NCBI GenBank assembly: GCA_000165345.1
Contig: CM000435.1
Span: 32,001 to 96,000, forward strand
Length of the DNA: 64,000 nucleotides
Direction: 5' to 3'
Below, in pieces: positions 15,081 through 63,709 of the stretch (within the stretch, counting starts at the first letter, position 1; every line of letters begins with the position of its first letter). A model generated the notes under the pieces. That model was not told where the DNA came from. It saw only the letters and a program-made list of their open reading frames with translations, and did no database searches. The position numbers and the translations under genes are program-made.

Positions 15081-15091
15081 TTTGGCGCCAC
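15081..15091. promoter_or_regulatory. E2F/DP-like element TTTGGCGCCAC, 46 bp upstream of the WD-repeat gene ATG
   Basis: This is one copy of the recurrent GC-rich motif GGCGCCAAA/TTTGGCGCC. The motif occurs only in intergenic DNA here. Other copies: 9495..9506, 21352..21363, 22463..22472 (GGCGGCAAG), 23640..23650, 27104..27114 (TTTGGCGCGAG), 28294..28307, 45693..45702, 46392..46403 (perfect palindrome TTTGGCGCCAAA), 52488..52500 (GCCCGCCAAAACC), 55765..55775, 62118..62130. Confidence 0.5.
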
Positions 15092-26965: not shown

Positions 26966-27147
26966 TGTATGTTGAATTCAAGAAACATATAACGAGGTAA
27001 ACGGCATAGATCAACTCAAATGATTCTAAGTTTTGGGAAATAAGCAAAGATTGGAATAAAATTATAATTGTATTTGGAATCATTCAAAAAATCCCTATGA
27101 CTATTTGGCGCGAGCGGTCAATATTACTTTGATATATTGCGGACAAA

Positions 27148-45312: not shown

Positions 45313-46627
45313 CTTTTTTTTTTTTCTATTCAAACAATATAAATCTAAATAATTGGTTTTAAAATGTTTCTTCAAACCAAAGAACTTCTCTTTATTTACC
45401 TGAGTATTCTGGTAGTTCTGGTCTTGTAATTTCTAGAACTTAATTTTTTTTTTGTATATTCAATATGTATCTTATATACAAAAAAATTTAGACTTAATCT
45501 TGCCAATTATTTCCTTAAATAATACTTTAACACGTCTCAAAAATTTCCTTGTAATTCAATATTTTTAATAATATATTATTAACTTTATAACTTGTTGTTC
45601 ATAAATAATTCTATTGTATTTAATGGTTATTTCTTAACTATTATTTATTATTAAGGACCTTTGTCTCTCAGTCAATTACCGCCCAAAGACATTTGGCGCC
45701 ATGCCTCGAATGTTCATATTTATAATATATAAAAAGGCAACTCTTCAAATAATTAAAGGGATGAAATTACAAGTTTAAATTTCTTTCGTTTTTTCATTTT
45801 ATTCAATTTTTCACTTGATTATTCCTCATTGTTTACTTCTTTTGTGATATTATCTTTTGTTTTGTGCGCTTTATTCATTTTTGAAATGACACTTAATGGT
45901 AGAAGTAAGGTATAAAGAGGTACCATAGACATGAGAAACGTTATTTGTACTCTTATGTTTAGTTGATTAATATTTAGAAATAAATGCGGATTATGTTTGA
46001 TATTGCAACGAGATGAAAGTAAGGGTGGCTTTGATCCGTAATTTGCGCTAATTACTAGAATCGAGAATTACAATGGAGTGAACTTCAGTTAATAGTAAAT
46101 ACATCCGGCTCTACCTCCTATACCTTAGCTAATTAGATTTTTCGTTTAATTCATTTACTACAATACAAAGCTAAGTATTTTACGACCTATACACACAAAA
46201 TTGTTGTAACATTGCAAAAGTTCCTTGTCAATCTAGAAGATTAAATAACGTTCCGTAAAGTCCTTTCCTCTCTACTTCTCTCAAATATATATATGACTTA
46301 ATATAAACATTTCTTTAATAATTAACCTTATTTATTTTTTTTCGAAATTTCAAAAATTATTTAAAATACATGTTTCAAAATTCAATTCAGTTTTGGCGCC
46401 AAACATTTAATATTTAAATTAGCATTAATATTTAAATAGGGATAATAAATAATTAATAATAAGTTAATATATAGATAAATTAATTAATAATATATTAATG
46501 TATATTAATTAAATACATTACATAGAATTATTAATTTAAGCCTCGGAGCAATATAATTAGATACCCCACTAAGCCGTAATTATATGGGGAGAAAAAAAAT
46601 TAGTTAAATTTTCTATTATGTAGGAAG

Positions 46628-51212: not shown

Positions 51213-52337
51213 TTAGATTTTTAATTTCTCAAAATCAATTTTGGGAGCGACTAATTTTGTAATAGAAGCTCTTTTACCTGTGAGAGCATTTCCAAGAGGG
51301 ACTACAACCTCTGCATCCTCAATGAAGTCATTTTTATCAGGGACTAGATTATTTTTCGATATATCAGTGTCCAATAGATTGGAGTTTGGATCATCGGAGT
51401 TGGAAATACCAGAATTAACAATAATTTTGGCGGGATTTTTGTCGAGAGTATTATTATTGGCTTGTTTTCTTCTCTCTTTAATAATTTTGGTGACTTTTTT
51501 ATGGACTTCAATCTCGCGAATACAAACCATCATAGCATCCATGAACTGTGTAGGGAGGTTTTCTATAATTGTAGTTTGCCCCGATTTGTTTCTCCTTGTG
51601 AATATAATTTTAGATCTACCATAGTCCCAATACCCATCCCTAAGGTCTTTTGCAAATATTATTCCTTTCTTTTCTGATTTTTCACCTCTACTAACTTTAA
51701 GGTCACTCTTTGTGTAGTAGGATAGAAATGCAATGGGGTCAGTTCCATCCATGATGAAAAATCTTACTTTATTTGGAGAAATATGTGAATCCCAATTTCC
51801 TACTAGTTTTACAGCAACACAACCTCTTTTTCCTATATCCCAAGCTGTGTGGTAGCCCATTATAATATCTTCTGGTATATACTCTCCTTTGGGAATCCAT
51901 GCTGTGCTTCTAATTTCATTCATCTCTTCTGGACTTAATGCGGCAATTTCTTCTCCTCTTTGAATTTGCTCAATTTCGTCATGCAAAAAATCGGGATTGT
52001 CATCTTCATTTGCTTTATGTCTCATCCTCCTATTTCTTATTCTCTGTCTAAATCTAACATCACCTAAATTAGAATTATCCGTACTACCTTTATTTTGGAA
52101 TATTTTAAGTTTATCTTGAATAATGCTATCAAACTTATTTGAATTTGAGGTTAGAATTGCATTAGGATCTAACTTCATATCATCATCTTCGTCAACAGAA
52201 AAGTCATCATCATCTCCGTAAAAGTCATTCCAATCATAATCTCCACTATAATATCCTTGTACATTTGCTAAAATTTTATTAACAGAGGCAGATTCTGAAG
52301 CATGGGCTGAATTACTATTATCCAAAGTATTCTGCAT
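51213..52337 (-). CDS. Hypothetical protein: acidic N-terminus (DDDDFSVDEDDD), then a globular ~150-aa C-terminal domain of unrecognised family
   Basis: The ORF-track start at 52343 is a TTG. The first ATG is at 52337..52335 (MQNTLDNS...). The C-terminal domain reads ...GCVAVKLVGNWDSHISPNKVRFFIMDGTDPIAFLSYYTKSDLKVSRGEKSEKKGIIFAKDLRDGYWDYGRSKIIFTRRNKSGQTTIIENLPTQFMDAMMVCIREIE. It may be a PH/RanBD-like fold, but I cannot confirm that. Confidence 0.4.
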   Translation of the reverse strand: MQNTLDNSNSAHASESASVNKILANVQGYYSGDYDWNDFYGDDDDFSVDEDDDMKLDPNAILTSNSNKFDSIIQDKLKIFQNKGSTDNSNLGDVRFRQRIRNRRMRHKANEDDNPDFLHDEIEQIQRGEEIAALSPEEMNEIRSTAWIPKGEYIPEDIIMGYHTAWDIGKRGCVAVKLVGNWDSHISPNKVRFFIMDGTDPIAFLSYYTKSDLKVSRGEKSEKKGIIFAKDLRDGYWDYGRSKIIFTRRNKSGQTTIIENLPTQFMDAMMVCIREIEVHKKVTKIIKERRKQANNNTLDKNPAKIIVNSGISNSDDPNSNLLDTDISKNNLVPDKNDFIEDAEVVVPLGNALTGKRASITKLVAPKIDFEKLKI

Positions 52338-52540
52338 CTTCAAAATATATTCAAATCTCTAAAATCTATAGAGACTTTAATTCTCTTTAAATTCCACTCC
52401 TATATCTTATTTTCTTCAGTTATTTCATTTAGATTCATTATTTTTAATTAGATTGCTTGTAATAGAAATTCCAAAAAATGTGTGCCAGCCCGCCAAAACC
52501 AAACCATTATAAATACAACATAAATAGTATAAACTGCATT

Positions 52541-53039
52541 ATGACAGATTGGGAATCACTTTTACTAGAGAGAGTCAAAAAAAGGGATCAGCCAAGTATC
52601 TCTGACCTTCTAGAGCTTTACGGATCGTGTAAGTAATTTTTTCTTTTAATTTTTAAGCCTTTTAATAACTTACTTCCTTCTTGATTTGGCGTAAATTACA
52701 CTTTTTATTCTCATTTTTTTTTCTCCTCAAATAGATACTGATCTAAGGAAAAGGTTCATCTCAGCTCAACCCTGCAACTCATCAACTCCTCAAAATAGGA
52801 AAACAACTCACACTAAAAATTCTAGTACAAGCACTGAACAAGTCCGTTTCCTACAAGCAAAACTTTCACAACTACAGCAAGAGCTCACCAATTCATATAA
52901 GAATAAACTCAACTTTGATGATTCTATTGGCAAACTCCGTGAGAAAATTGATAAGTTAGAAAGTGAAATTTCAGAAAAAGACAAAACAATTAGCAAACTT
53001 GAGAGAACAATTTCCCACTTGCAGTCTAATAAACTGTAG
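52541..53039 (+). CDS. Two-exon gene for a ~130-aa Atg16-like protein (Atg5-binding-type N-helix plus coiled coil): join(52541..52628, 52735..53039). Absent from the ORF track
   Basis: ATG at 52541. Exon 1 encodes MTDWESLLLERVKKRDQPSISDLLELYGS. Its GTAAGT donor is at 52629..52634, and reading through hits TAA immediately. The 106-nt intron ends in CCTCAAATAG, and exon 2 resumes in phase: YTDLRKRF...EQVRFLQAKLSQLQQELTNSYKNKLNFDDSIGKLREKIDKLESEISEKDKTISKLERTISHLQSNKL, ending at TAG 53037..53039. The N-terminal spacing W-x10-RD followed by I.DLLELY parallels the ATG16L1 Atg5-binding helix (W..H...QL.RRD....Q.FEEIILQY). The remainder is heptad coiled coil, as in yeast-type Atg16. Confidence 0.45.
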
Positions 53040-53590
53040 ATTAGTTATATATTAATTACAAACACACAGAAACGCATGAACAAGACTTCAATCTTTCCTT
53101 TATTTCAGTCTTAAAACGATTATTACAATACTTTTTAACTTTTGCCCCTCAACCGCTCTCCACCCAAGAATAATGCCCGCCTAAACATTAATTATTACTA
53201 ATTCAAATATATATATTAGTGGTAACTAATAAATTTAAGAGGGGTTGGATAACAAATTAATGGCCCACATAATTAATAATAATTAGTGATAAGTATTAAA
53301 GAAGAGAGGTACCATATTATTGTTGACACACGTCTAATAGCGGTTATTTTTTAATATAAGATATTTTGCTATATACTAATTCAAAGCACTGTTTAAGGAT
53401 ATAATCAAAGATACTATTTAGAGCTATAGACTGAATAATCATAAATTATTCTAATTATATATATTATTAAATATAGATTTTATTTAAGTTATATTAATTA
53501 AGCGTTTTAACCCCTCTTAAATTTTCCCCCAAAGAAAAATTACCCAACATTAATATTTCGAACATTTCAGTTTTCTTAAAGTTGGAAAGA

Positions 53591-61817: not shown

Positions 61818-62315
61818 GAAACTACGTAAAGTACCTTGCTAAAAGATTTAGTTATATTTAATTGTTTGAATTAGAGCGGCTCCTCCTTTTATTTATTTAA
61901 TATTGTTTATATATTACAATTAATTCGGAATCCCATTAAATGAGAGTATTGCGACTATTAGGGGGGGAAAATAGGATAAGAGCTGATTATTAATCATACA
62001 TTTCATGACAAAATAGAATAACTTCTCGTAATTATTCGATAGTATGTTGTATTTTAGCAAATTCAGAAATATTTATTATTTTTTTTAGCTCAATTTGGAT
62101 TATAGAAAAAAAAGACAACCCGCCAAAATTTGGAAAATTAATATTGCATGCAGAATGTGAATAGCCAGAATAACAGAAATATTGGAAGTTATCATATTTT
62201 TAATATCCAGATTGTTTTTTAAATAAATTTCAGTAGGTATGACGGAATTAAAAATTAAAATCTGGTTCAAAATCTGAACAATTTTGAGTGTTAATAGTTA
62301 TATTATTTCATTAAA

Positions 62316-62354
<39 letters not shown>

Positions 62355-62665
62355 GACTCAATTTATACCAAAAAAAGCCAAACACTATTGCTTGCATGCA
62401 ATCTCCACGTAATATTACAAGTTGCATGGCATAATAATCCACATAGTGCATGTTTCTCGCAACCCCACTTATGTAGAATTGACTTAGAAAAAAAGTACCG
62501 AGTCATTTTTTTTTCTCACTTGATTTTAATAGTAATATAATAAATTTCAAAAGTTTCAAATCTATTTCAACAGGAAATAGCAATCAAAGCAAGAGAAGTT
62601 TGTTTTGTTACTAGTTTAATACAGGGAAGATTAAAATTAACAATTGCCGGAATTTTGTGGTCAAA

Positions 62666-63709
62666 ATGAAGTTCTGTCAAAACGTATTATATATGATTTC
62701 AATAATCATTTTAGTGGTTAGAGGAGCACCCACATTGAATGTAAGAAATCCAGGAGAGCATGGTCATCCAGATTCAATGATTACAACATCAACTACTAAG
62801 GCTACACATACATTGAAATCAAACAATCAATCAACTTCAGAAGAATTATTATCAATGAAATCACTACAAAATGAACCTAATTGTGAAAACGCAGTATTCC
62901 CTTCAGAAGTTTTTGCATCTCAACCAAGAGATGACAAAGTTTACATAAAACCATCTACAATCCCAGAATCAGGATTCACAAGAGCAGGATTAACAAAGTT
63001 TACTTCTGCTTTTGGAATTCATATACTTGGTGATTATAGAGTACCTGACGATAAATTATCATATTTAACAGAATTATTAGCAAGTGTCTTAGATAATGAT
63101 CAAGATGGATTGGTAGATGCAACCCAAAATACTATTTTAGATACAATACGTTCATCCAACGCAATGATGGTTATTTTATCTGGAAATGAAGAATCTGTTG
63201 ATAAATTATTGGATCCACATGAAGGATTACCACCAGAGTACTCTTGTATGATGTTTTTACTTGTAGAACAAGCCAAAAATATTATACGTGGTGGACCACA
63301 TCAAAAGAATTGCCCACAAGATTTGGATAGAGTTAATGATAGAGGATTAGGATTTGTTGTAGATTTTATTTCTCAAGCAGCATATCCTGTCACATTTTCA
63401 TTAAATGAAGAAAGTTCTATGAGAATGGAGAATTTGTACAATTCTGCATTAAGAAAGGGATGGTTTTTACCACAGAATATTCCTGTTGCAAATAATGAGC
63501 TTTGCGATGAAGATTGTAAAAGATTATCTTTCCAATCCTGGCTTGCAACTTCAATATTAGACCAAGATAAATGTTCATGCATTAAAGCAAACGTATTCAA
63601 ATTATGTACATCTGAGGAAATCCGAAATATTTCACCAGATGATTTTGCTTACTTCGCTAGTGCATTAAAACGTCCAACGGCATATTCTTCTCCAGCTATT
63701 ATTGCTTAA
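62666..63709 (+). CDS. Hypothetical secreted protein (signal peptide, Thr/Ser-rich spacer, Cys-containing globular domain)
   Basis: The ORF-track start at 62657 is a GTG. The ATG is at 62666 (MKFCQNVLYMISIIILVVRGAP...). Predicted cleavage is after RG|AP. ...TTSTTKATHTLKSNNQSTSEE is a mucin-like spacer. I recognise no family. Confidence 0.4.
   Translation: MKFCQNVLYMISIIILVVRGAPTLNVRNPGEHGHPDSMITTSTTKATHTLKSNNQSTSEELLSMKSLQNEPNCENAVFPSEVFASQPRDDKVYIKPSTIPESGFTRAGLTKFTSAFGIHILGDYRVPDDKLSYLTELLASVLDNDQDGLVDATQNTILDTIRSSNAMMVILSGNEESVDKLLDPHEGLPPEYSCMMFLLVEQAKNIIRGGPHQKNCPQDLDRVNDRGLGFVVDFISQAAYPVTFSLNEESSMRMENLYNSALRKGWFLPQNIPVANNELCDEDCKRLSFQSWLATSILDQDKCSCIKANVFKLCTSEEIRNISPDDFAYFASALKRPTAYSSPAIIA

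Follow-up and report, generated by a model that had tools for sequence, protein, structure and literature searches.

Gene structure, promoter and orthologues

The window analysed here, a stretch of 64,000 nucleotides, comes from chromosome 7 of Cryptosporidium parvum. On its forward strand it carries a short gene that the first-pass annotation had spliced by eye and described as unannotated, coding for a minimal, yeast-type Atg16-like protein. Its parts are:

52541..52628, + strand: exon 1, 88 nt, phase 1; ATG at 52541, codons 1–29 and the first base of codon 30
52629..52734, + strand: intron, 106 nt, GTAAGT...ATAG, 24% G+C, phase 1
52735..53039, + strand: exon 2, completing codon 30 (Y30) and running to codon 130 and a TAG stop

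The donor GTAAGT begins at 52629 and the acceptor ...CAAATAG ends at 52734; joining the exons gives a coding sequence of 393 nt and a product of 130 aa (MTDWES...LERTISHLQSNKL), with most of an N-terminal helix (MTDWESLLLERVKKRDQPSISDLLELYGS) supplied by exon 1. Exon 2 was missing from the list of open reading frames because its frame lacks a usable start codon. The splicing by eye was accurate: both exons, their coordinates, the splice sites and the 130-aa product are as had been claimed, and the donor (T|GTAAGT) occupies the identical codon and phase in six species, in which splicing to the first acceptor that keeps the frame regenerates ...GS-Y-T(D/E)L.... Across these six species the intron ranges from 83 to 144 nt, and 12 of 160 aligned columns are invariant, conservation being confined to the splice signals. 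Exon substitutions fall mostly at third codon positions, with dN/dS of 0.16–0.19 for unsaturated pairs. We conclude that the gene is real, spliced, under purifying selection and found throughout the genus, and that its conserved sequence features are not chance. A translated isoform that retains the intron was considered for two species with stop-free introns divisible by three and rejected, as these are expected at P = 0.11–0.27 from the pyrimidine-rich composition.

We judge it very improbable that the gene model is wrong, whether because the transcript stays unspliced or because translation begins further upstream, at the in-frame ATG at 52478, which would make a protein of 151 aa. An in-frame TAA lies directly after the intron donor, and an unspliced reading would stop after 31 codons and lose a 101-codon conserved frame that is under purifying selection and has no start codon of its own; the splice position and phase, moreover, are constant across the six species. 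Among five species the upstream ATG opens an uninterrupted in-frame reading solely in C. parvum, where its context is A-rich, and in C. canis; in the remaining three either the frame differs or stops intervene. Every orthologue starts M-x-(D/N)-W. The upstream ATG also sits in a block of conserved DNA ahead of the gene:

52474..52500, no strand assigned: conserved promoter block AAAATGTGTGCCAGCCCGCCAAAACC, containing the E2F-like site and the upstream ATG (52478); non-coding
52488..52498, - strand: E2F-like motif TTTTGGCGGGC, in a 203-bp divergent intergenic region whose other gene is on the minus strand at 51213-52337

Because the upstream ATG is broken in three of five species and lies inside this block, we assign it to the promoter and not to coding sequence; an N-terminal extension of the protein from 52478 was rejected, since the added codons show no conservation as coding sequence. 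The block is nearly invariant and alignable in five intestinal Cryptosporidium species, 47–55 nt ahead of the start codon. The E2F-like sequence GCCCGCCAAAACC at 52488-52500 (reverse complement GGTTTTGGCGGGC), to which the first-pass annotation had drawn attention 40 nt upstream of the ATG, is real and is kept in five of the six species compared. Sequences of this kind are also enriched in the window, where TTGGCGGG occurs three times against 0.27 expected and TTTSGCGS 11 times against 1.24 expected, a count that none of 100 shuffles equalled. Transcription probably starts from this short divergent promoter, with the conserved E2F-like site ~50 nt upstream of the ATG.

The description of the gene as unannotated is mistaken. 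The identical 130-aa product is present in GenBank and UniProt under KAL5367342.1, QOY40348.1, WKS78714.1 and WRK33201.1 (CPHLJ_7g355); the sources label these identical proteins ATG16-domain protein or ATG16, one of them in the form "Autophagy-related protein 16 [Cryptosporidium parvum]", and GenBank record CP141124.1 gives the gene exactly the span of the hand-spliced model. As the exact gene model and the name were already public, the identification was a correct call and not a discovery, and the protein is an ordinary, previously annotated member of a known family. Orthologues in at least 12 Cryptosporidium lineages have synteny, intron position and intron phase in common, and C. muris and C. 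serpentis each have an orthologue; in six species the genes run in the order GRASP / 375-aa gene / ATG16 / BiP. The product is 130 aa long in five species and 137 aa in C. muris, with a conserved stop position. Precomputed PF08614 matches exist on all eight proteins from the homologue search, and the gene tables of five loci agree on the family. Three of the public models for orthologues are intron read-through errors: those of C. sp. chipmunk genotype I, of C. ryanae and of a Logan assembly. A tRNA scan of the window found none. In the literature we found no experimental or functional study on the Cryptosporidium ATG16 protein, and a search of papers for the locus tag cgd7_355 returned solely the unrelated tag cgd7_3550.

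Membership of the ATG16 family

Against Pfam PF08614 (ATG16) the protein scored 44.1 bits, over a cut-off of 33.7 (E = 3.6e-11), with residues 12–127 aligned to model positions 6–137 of 200. This score comes largely from the coiled coil, a segment that by itself reaches 35.3 bits and barely passes the cut-off, and residues 1–60 alone did not match the model. Many other coiled-coil families score at E ~1e-6 to 1e-2 on the same protein, and the unrelated long coiled-coil proteins P0011 and P0014 exceed the ATG16 cut-off in total score. These results speak for the reading of the protein as a generic small coiled coil whose ATG16 match is an artefact of composition or heptads, with no link to ATG5 or ATG8 lipidation. 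Even so, ATG16 leads the next coiled-coil Pfam family by 18 bits, and profile searches bear further on the question.

When a single sequence or a full-length profile built from Cryptosporidium alone was used to search the PDB, generic coiled coils were the only matches, and an N-terminal Cryptosporidium-only profile of 41 positions found no ATG16 chain at E<=10 in the whole PDB; both results speak for an artefact. Searched against 1.84 billion proteins, however, the Cryptosporidium-only profile matched P0034 collinearly from residue 1 (E = 2.6e-4), an ATG16L-like protein of 595 aa with Pfam ATG16 at 69 bits and WD40 repeats. Once the profile was bridged by including P0034, P0042 and the C. muris sequence, human ATG16L1 came first in the PDB search (5npv_B, E = 1.4e-6), with profile positions 3–128 on human 12–144 and a lead of ~450-fold in E-value over the next match; chains consisting of the N-terminal helix only, 4tq0_B and 4gdk_C, were also matched, at E = 0.02–0.04. 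Alignment of the Cryptosporidium profile with human ATG16L1 by hhalign placed residues 2–35 on 11–44, a register agreeing with that of the PDB search. A Foldseek search of the PDB with the AlphaFold2 monomer gave no meaningful match, an expected result for isolated helices.

By profile, the protein belongs to the ATG16 family. The match is collinear and in two parts, one of which is the N-terminal helix, outside the coiled coil, in the right register and with its invariant W and R; the signature LQxELTxSY(K/R) is common to P0034 and aligns with QEELTELHKK of human ATG16L1, itself the top PDB match of the bridged profile. Taking these points together with the lead in Pfam score, we consider a mere heptad artefact improbable. 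The proposal of a short ATG16-family protein without WD40 is borne out by the Pfam score above cut-off and by reciprocal profile matches to a WD40-bearing ATG16L-like protein and to human ATG16L1.

Conservation across the genus is highest in the first 33 residues. Eight Cryptosporidium sequences, that of C. muris among them, all have M1, W4, R15, D22, L24, Y27, S29, Y30 and L33, and helices are predicted at 4–15 and 20–39, with a kink at P18, a proline invariant in the intestinal clade. The features first seen by eye, namely W4 followed by ten residues and R15-D16 and then the stretch I20-S-D-L-L-E-L-Y27, are both present. The ATG5-interacting motif has been defined as W-x3-I-x3-L-x2-R-x3-Q/E (PMC4453027), and the C. 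parvum version, W4-x3-L8-x3-V12-x2-R15, keeps four of the five positions, conservatively, with W4 and R15 invariant in the genus. The fifth position is S, T or C, or Q in C. muris alone, where it fits the Q/E of the motif, and never E; it is Ser in C. parvum as against Gln in human ATG16L1. A relaxed form of the motif has no occurrence in the 17,789 residues of the window's other open reading frames. In a targeted N-terminal test P0034 residues 1–35 scored 12.9 bits (E = 1.4e-5, Z = 4) and human ATG16L1 residues 13–30 scored 4.0 bits (E = 0.009), each in the expected register. Taken alone, the N-terminal likeness to human or yeast ATG16 is weak. The idea of an Atg5-binding helix has partial support: it has the four motif positions in its favour, while the failure of the Cryptosporidium-only N-terminal profile to find PDB ATG16 chains, the mere 4 bits to human ATG16L1, the deviating fifth position and the kink at P18 count against it. 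The detail of the match also changes: the residues are as described, but in the profile alignments human Y39 pairs without a gap with Y30, whose codon is split by the intron, and not, across a gap, with Y27.

Architecture compared with known ATG16 proteins

Beyond the N-terminal helix the protein is made up of two parts:

52764..52820, + strand: linker, residues 40–58; poorly conserved, of low complexity and predicted disordered
52821..53033, + strand: coiled-coil region, residues 59–129, including the signature L-Q-x-E-L-T-x-S-Y-(K/R)

Sequence varies most in the linker, where C. xiaoi and C. ryanae have a large insertion, and AlphaFold2 gives pLDDT <50 at residues 43–58. Residues 59–129 are modelled as one helix with pLDDT 88–98, and the heptad coiled coil predicted earlier proves to be a single unbroken register over residues 66–125, in which core hydrophobic residues occupy 15 of the 21 a/d positions and 3 of the 50 remaining ones. 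At the level of sequence, the coiled coil looks as expected for the parallel homodimerisation that characterises the family. A strongly conserved polar patch, ELTNSY(K/R)NKxNFDDS, breaks the core at S83 and K87. Residue 130 is the last, and there is no C-terminal WD40 beta-propeller, as had been claimed: no hidden WD40 exons were found in the ~550 nt between the stop codon and the start of BiP, which contain no long open reading frame, and the stop is conserved. The layout runs from an N-terminal helix through a disordered linker into a long heptad coiled coil, with neither a WD40 domain nor a distal coiled-coil segment.

Human ATG16L1 (~12–144; PDB 5NPV, 4TQ0, 4GDK, 4NAW) is collinear with this protein over N-terminal helix, linker and coiled coil, and its coiled coil begins with a QEELT..(H/Y)(K/R)K signature, as in Cryptosporidium. 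Without gaps, W4 corresponds to human W13, L8 to I17, V12 to L21, R15 to R24, D16 to D25, L23 to F32, Y27 to I36 and Y30 to Y39. Its Cryptosporidium counterpart goes no further than the equivalent of human ~144 and so lacks the distal coiled coil and the WD40 propeller of the human protein. In human ATG16L1 the WIPI2, FIP200 and RAB33B sites lie in the distal coiled coil and linker, roughly residues 141–265. This part is absent here, as the human alignment ends at ~144 with nothing beyond; the WIPI2-binding region at ~207–230 (peptides matched: 7mu2_B and 7f69_C) and the RAB33B-binding region at ~154–210 (chain 6sur_I) are both missing.

The likeness to yeast Atg16 is of a different kind. The Atg21-binding pair of yeast Atg16 is D101/E102, and no counterpart could be aligned in the Cryptosporidium protein. 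Saccharomyces cerevisiae Atg16 consists of an N-terminal Atg5-binding domain, a flexible linker and a parallel dimeric coiled coil, without WD40 (PMC12005411), and in size (150 aa; PDB 2DYO, 3A7P) and overall architecture the two proteins are alike. In sequence, however, yeast Atg16 maps to positions 123–200 of the Pfam ATG16 model and the Cryptosporidium protein to 6–137; hhalign between them gave 19% probability over a generic coiled-coil stretch only, and yeast Atg16 was not among the bridged-profile PDB matches at E<=1. In a non-significant alignment Cryptosporidium R15 stands opposite yeast R35. Homology to the yeast coiled coil, including its Atg21-binding site, was rejected on the different profile segments and the hhalign probability. 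The label "yeast-type" therefore fits the architecture and not the sequence, which follows human ATG16L1 12–144, and a better description than yeast-type homologue is the N-terminal half of an ATG16L-type protein. Since the two proteins cover different Pfam segments, Cryptosporidium seems to have arrived at its short form by a truncation of its own and not through ancestry shared with the yeast form.

A motif of this type also exists outside ATG16, as the ATG5-interacting region of TECPR1 has a W-x3-I-x3-L-x2-R core that binds the same ATG5 groove (PMC4453027). TECPR1, a large protein with PH and beta-propeller domains, carries the motif internally, ahead of a loop instead of a helix, and binds as a monomer, whereas in Cryptosporidium the motif is N-terminal and is followed by a predicted dimerising coiled coil, as in ATG16. 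On balance we think it likely that the gene (locus tag ending in 7g355) is the two-exon C. parvum ATG16 orthologue, whose 130 residues correspond to the N-terminal half of an ATG16L-type protein.

ATG16 in an apicomplexan without an apicoplast

ATG16L of Toxoplasma and Plasmodium is a long form with WD40 repeats that serves apicoplast inheritance, as part of the ATG12-ATG5-ATG16L complex required for placing ATG8 on that organelle. The Cryptosporidium protein is from the same phylum and presumably from the same complex. In T. gondii the complex is reported to govern where ATG8 is localised (PMC11764061, citing Fu et al. 2023). No apicoplast remains in Cryptosporidium (PMC8161075, PMC9973341), so the first-pass rationale of apicoplast maintenance does not apply to this gene. 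A complete ATG8 system is reported to be retained, and its ATG8 has typical C-terminal features (PMC4206529, PMC8161075). An ATG5 profile (human, yeast, Arabidopsis) gave no apicomplexan among the best 120 of 872 matches, which came from animals, plants, yeast and unnamed sources. Within the window, Pfam scans of 20 of the 27 long open reading frames (a 350-aa frame at 62657-63709 being left out) and the recorded Pfam annotation of seven genes (46.6–59.0 kb) yielded no ATG5 or ATG12. We found no paper on the ATG12-ATG5-ATG16 arm of Cryptosporidium.

A true ATG16 homologue might have been repurposed in such an organism, no longer serving as the ATG8 E3 scaffold but as a coiled-coil adaptor in other trafficking, or working without ATG12. 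The ATG12 system can be lost in Apicomplexa, the apicoplast and the WD40 propeller are both gone, the protein ends at the equivalent of human ~144 so that every distal interaction region is missing, and the ATG5-interacting motif varies at its last position. We nevertheless regard repurposing as unlikely, given that the N-terminal 33 residues are the best conserved across the genus, pointing to a retained partner at the ATG5-binding position, that the ATG8 system is reportedly complete, and that yeast Atg16 functions with the same minimal combination of N-terminal domain and coiled coil.

As for how an ATG16 of this form would act, family precedent suggests that the amphipathic N-terminal helix (W4, L8, V12 and R15; L23, L26, Y27 and Y30) docks on ATG5 and that the coiled coil at 66–125 forms a parallel homodimer, which, we propose, would therefore hold two ATG12-ATG5 units. 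In Plasmodium and Toxoplasma ATG12-ATG5 is non-covalent. By analogy with other family members, the assembly would be an E3-like factor, enabling ATG3 to attach ATG8 to membrane phosphatidylethanolamine. As there is no apicoplast, either an autophagic membrane or some other endomembrane would be the target, and with the WIPI2, FIP200 and RAB33B regions and the WD40 propeller all absent, membrane targeting must work differently. The conserved polar patch in the coiled coil is, speculatively, a candidate surface for it. Put together, these elements make up a tentative and rather doubtful picture: an ATG16L-type protein independently cut to ~130 residues, convergent on the yeast layout, forming a working ATG12-ATG5-ATG16 E3 for canonical ATG8 lipidation without an apicoplast, and targeted through the polar patch, as a lineage-specific surface, instead of WIPI2, FIP200 or WD40 modules.

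Although the gene and its name are already public, three things can be added to the database label: that the protein is a truncated N-terminal half of the ATG16L type, that it carries no known membrane-targeting module, and that three orthologue models are erroneous. Cryptosporidium, lacking the apicoplast, has been proposed as an organism for studying canonical apicomplexan autophagy (PMC8161075), and a description of its ATG16 is modestly useful to that end. If the full picture were true, the protein would provide a natural example of a minimal E3 scaffold and a way to approach the role of ATG8 in Cryptosporidium.

Gene structure and existing annotation

The ATG16-like gene of C. parvum is split by one short intron:

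52541-52628 (+), exon 1, 88 nt, with the ATG at 52541 and ending in phase 1
52629-52734 (+), intron, 106 nt, 24% G+C, with a GTAAGT donor and a ...CAAATAG acceptor
52735-53039 (+), exon 2, with the stop codon TAG at 53037-53039

The spliced CDS of 393 nt encodes a 130-aa protein, and the coordinates, splice sites and product given in the first-pass annotation agree exactly with the sequence (the window has ~25-43% G+C per 1-kb window, mean ~33%). The unspliced frame stops after 31 codons; since no start codon opens the exon 2 frame, it is absent from a prokaryote-style ORF list. In six species the T|GTAAGT donor falls in the same codon and phase, and splicing to the first in-frame acceptor rebuilds ...GS-Y-T(D/E)L.... 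The six introns measure 83, 102, 106, 107, 107 and 144 nt, and their invariant columns (12 of 160 aligned) are essentially the splice signals. Exon substitutions are concentrated at third codon positions (e.g. 15/13/35 and 28/21/48), and dN/dS is 0.156-0.193 for pairs with unsaturated dS only. Judged from these sequence comparisons, the gene is real, spliced and constrained. The upstream in-frame ATG at 52478 was rejected as the coding start: in 3 of 5 species its frame differs or is closed by stops, and it sits inside a block conserved as DNA.

The gene had been put forward as unannotated, which is incorrect: an identical product (100%) is already deposited as KAL5367342.1, QOY40348.1, WKS78714.1 and WRK33201.1. 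Names in the C. parvum entries are "hypothetical protein CPHLJ_7g355", "Autophagy-related protein 16 domain-containing protein" and "Autophagy-related protein 16 [Cryptosporidium parvum]". The same protein is found on CP141124.1 (assembly GCA_035232765.1), where the called gene of 499 bases has the same span as 52541-53039; this record places the window on C. parvum chromosome 7. Orthologues are recorded in C. hominis, C. meleagridis (as "Autophagy protein 16 (ATG16) family protein"), C. ubiquitum, C. canis, C. sp. chipmunk genotype I, C. xiaoi, C. ryanae, C. muris and C. serpentis, and in three Logan assemblies, two of which carry exon-1 fragments. We found no paper on the C. parvum gene in a literature search: cgd7_355 brought up nothing but the unrelated tag cgd7_3550, and CpATG returned only work on CpAtg8.

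Three public models, P0004 (164 aa), P0007 (178 aa) and P0010 (206 aa; C. ryanae), translate through the intron and need correction. In the two whose DNA was examined, the intron is stop-free and its length divisible by three, which is unremarkable at such pyrimidine-rich composition (P=0.11 and 0.27):

L006 3001-3495, C. sp. chipmunk genotype I, P0004, 164-aa intron read-through; spliced, 130 aa
L005 3001-3537, Logan SRR31860986, P0007, 178-aa intron read-through; spliced, 130 aa

Relationship to the ATG16 family

The protein matches Pfam ATG16 (PF08614) with E=3.6e-11 and 44.1 bits (curated cut-off 33.7), residues 12-127 aligning to model positions 6-137 of 200, and this match leads the next coiled-coil family by 18 bits. 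The coiled coil by itself scores 35.3 bits and residues 1-60 by themselves give no match to the model, so the coiled coil supplies most of the score and the N-terminus ~9 bits. In a reverse search, we queried 1.84 billion representative proteins with a profile built from six Cryptosporidium sequences. Once Cryptosporidium proteins and unrelated long coiled coils are set aside, three matches are collinear and begin at one of the first eight residues of the protein: the 137-aa C. muris protein, P0042 (a 129-aa marine transcript product) and P0034 (E=2.6e-4, residues 1-124 against 1-133). P0034 is a 595-aa protein with Pfam ATG16 at 69.3 bits and WD40 repeats, and is thus a canonical long ATG16L-like protein. 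When these three were added to the Cryptosporidium sequences, the top PDB match of the resulting bridged profile was human ATG16L1 (5npv_B, E=1.4e-6), with profile positions 3-128 aligned to human residues 12-144. This profile also matched chains holding just the ATG5-binding helix: 4tq0_B and 5d7g_B (both E=0.02) and 4gdk_C (also 4naw; E=0.04). The human and yeast sequences used were verified against PDB chains. The Pfam, P0034 and human ATG16L1 matches uphold the core interpretation of a short ATG16 without WD40. The gene, annotated before this analysis, belongs to a known family as an ordinary member.

Yeast Atg16 reaches 44.1 bits too, but over positions 123-200 of the Pfam model. Aligned with the Cryptosporidium protein by hhalign it reaches 19% probability over a generic stretch, and it is not present among the bridged-profile PDB matches at E<=1. 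The different model segments and the weak yeast alignment point to the N-terminal half of an ATG16L-type protein, which, as far as sequence goes, is how C. parvum ATG16 is best described; the "yeast-type" label is accurate for the overall layout only. The Cryptosporidium protein ends at the equivalent of human ATG16L1 residue ~144, and lacks the distal coiled coil, the WD40 propeller and the WIPI2, FIP200 and RAB33B binding regions, located in part through matched PDB chains. No long ORF occurs in the ~550 nt between the ATG16 stop and the BiP start.

The ATG5-interacting motif is W-x3-I-x3-L-x2-R-x3-Q/E (PMC4453027), and its C. parvum counterpart reads W4-x3-L8-x3-V12-x2-R15-x3-S19. W4 and R15 do not vary across the genus, C. 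muris included. Position 12 can be V, A or I, and position 19 S, T, C or Q. An ungapped map to human pairs W4 with W13, L8 with I17, V12 with L21, R15 with R24, D16 with D25, L23 with F32, Y27 with I36 and Y30 with Y39; as the Y30 codon is split by the intron, Y30 is encoded by the spliced mRNA only. The relaxed motif occurs 0 times in 17,789 residues of the window's other long open frames. A Cryptosporidium-only N-terminal profile (41 positions) found no ATG16 chain at E<=10 in the whole PDB. In a targeted test on four sequences, it gave 12.9 bits for P0034 residues 1-35 (E=1.4e-5), only 4.0 bits for human residues 13-30 (E=0.009), and a non-significant alignment to yeast Atg16 with R15 opposite R35. 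Homology of the helix to ATG16 is thus well supported by way of the intermediate sequence, but only marginally supported directly. Its reading as an Atg5-binding helix is partly supported: four of the five motif positions are kept, conservatively, and the fifth is Ser.

In an AlphaFold2 model built from the six-sequence alignment (mean pLDDT 79), residues 4-15 and 20-39 are predicted to be helical, with the invariant P18 forming a kink; residues 43-58 are predicted to be disordered and residues 59-129 to form a single helix (pLDDT 88-98). Residues V66 to L125 keep one heptad register, with hydrophobic residues at 15 of 21 a/d positions against 3 of 50 others. The two polar core positions, S83 and K87, belong to the best-conserved motif, ELTNSY(K/R)NK. 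A fold search with the monomer model was uninformative. In the C. xiaoi (L004 3001-3602) and C. ryanae (P0010) clade the disordered linker carries an insertion of ~35 residues.

Intergenic elements and neighbourhood

Several short elements lie near the gene or recur in the window:

52488-52498 (-), E2F-like element TTTTGGCGGGC, in the 203-bp divergent intergenic region
15081-15088, 27104-27111, 46392-46403 and 62120-62127, examples of TTTSGCGS sites
53231-53246 and 53509-53524, perfect 16-nt inverted repeat AAATTTAAGAGGGGTT / AACCCCTCTTAAATTT between ATG16 and BiP, arms 262 nt apart

The E2F-like site was correctly noticed at first pass. It is conserved 47-55 nt upstream of the ATG in five species and absent in the C. 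xiaoi / C. ryanae clade, where the upstream intergenic region is ~640 bp. The E2F-like site at 52488-52498 could serve either divergent gene. The window has 3 copies of TTGGCGGG (0.27 expected) and 11 of TTTSGCGS (1.24 expected); one of the latter is the perfect palindrome TTTGGCGCCAAA at 46392-46403, directly upstream of the EMP70 gene. Across the 64-kb window, the core of the inverted repeat, TTAAGAGGGG, is confined to its two copies (0.12 expected). C. ubiquitum has both copies, and two further species have the BiP-proximal one, ~70 nt upstream of the BiP ATG. It is a candidate conserved BiP promoter element.

Gene order is common to every locus fetched: GRASP55/65 (-), an uncharacterised gene of ~375 aa (-), ATG16 (+) and BiP (+). 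The divergent neighbour (51213-52337, -) encodes 374 aa with an acidic, aspartate-rich N-terminus, is syntenic in all six Cryptosporidium loci and has no Pfam match. This conserved, uncharacterised protein and ATG16 may be co-regulated via the shared E2F-like site. Elsewhere Pfam identifies RING finger, sortilin/Vps10, cNMP-binding, SprT-like, FKBP, Ras/Rab GTPase, RNase PH, UTP25, VIT1 iron transporter, amine oxidase (1165 aa), protein kinase, Rad21/Rec8, LCCL/discoidin (1674 aa), GLE1, ribosomal L18A, EMP70 and alpha/beta hydrolase proteins, in addition to GRASP55/65 and BiP. There are no tRNA genes in the 64-kb window.

Proposed role in ATG8 conjugation

By analogy with established family behaviour (PMC12005411), the N-terminal helix would dock in a groove spanning both ubiquitin-like domains of ATG5, and the coiled coil would pair as a parallel homodimer. 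Together with ATG12-ATG5 this would give a 2:2(:2) assembly, which would be the E3-like factor for ATG8-PE conjugation. Membrane targeting would have to proceed without the known modules, and we speculate that the conserved polar patch of the coiled coil is a candidate site. Cryptosporidium ATG8 keeps its canonical C-terminal features (PMC4206529, PMC8161075), and the ATG12-ATG5 complex of Plasmodium and Toxoplasma is non-covalent (PMC8161075). An apicoplast role, as first suggested, is not applicable since Cryptosporidium has lost this organelle (PMC8161075, PMC9973341).

An ATG5 profile search returned no apicomplexan among the best 120 of 872 matches, and neither ATG5 nor ATG12 is among the window's 27 long ORFs by Pfam scan or recorded annotation (one 350-aa ORF excepted). 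Piroplasms have lost the ATG12 system, and in some coccidia, e.g. Eimeria, ATG12 could not be found. The high conservation of the N-terminal helix in Cryptosporidium argues, indirectly, that a binding partner persists.
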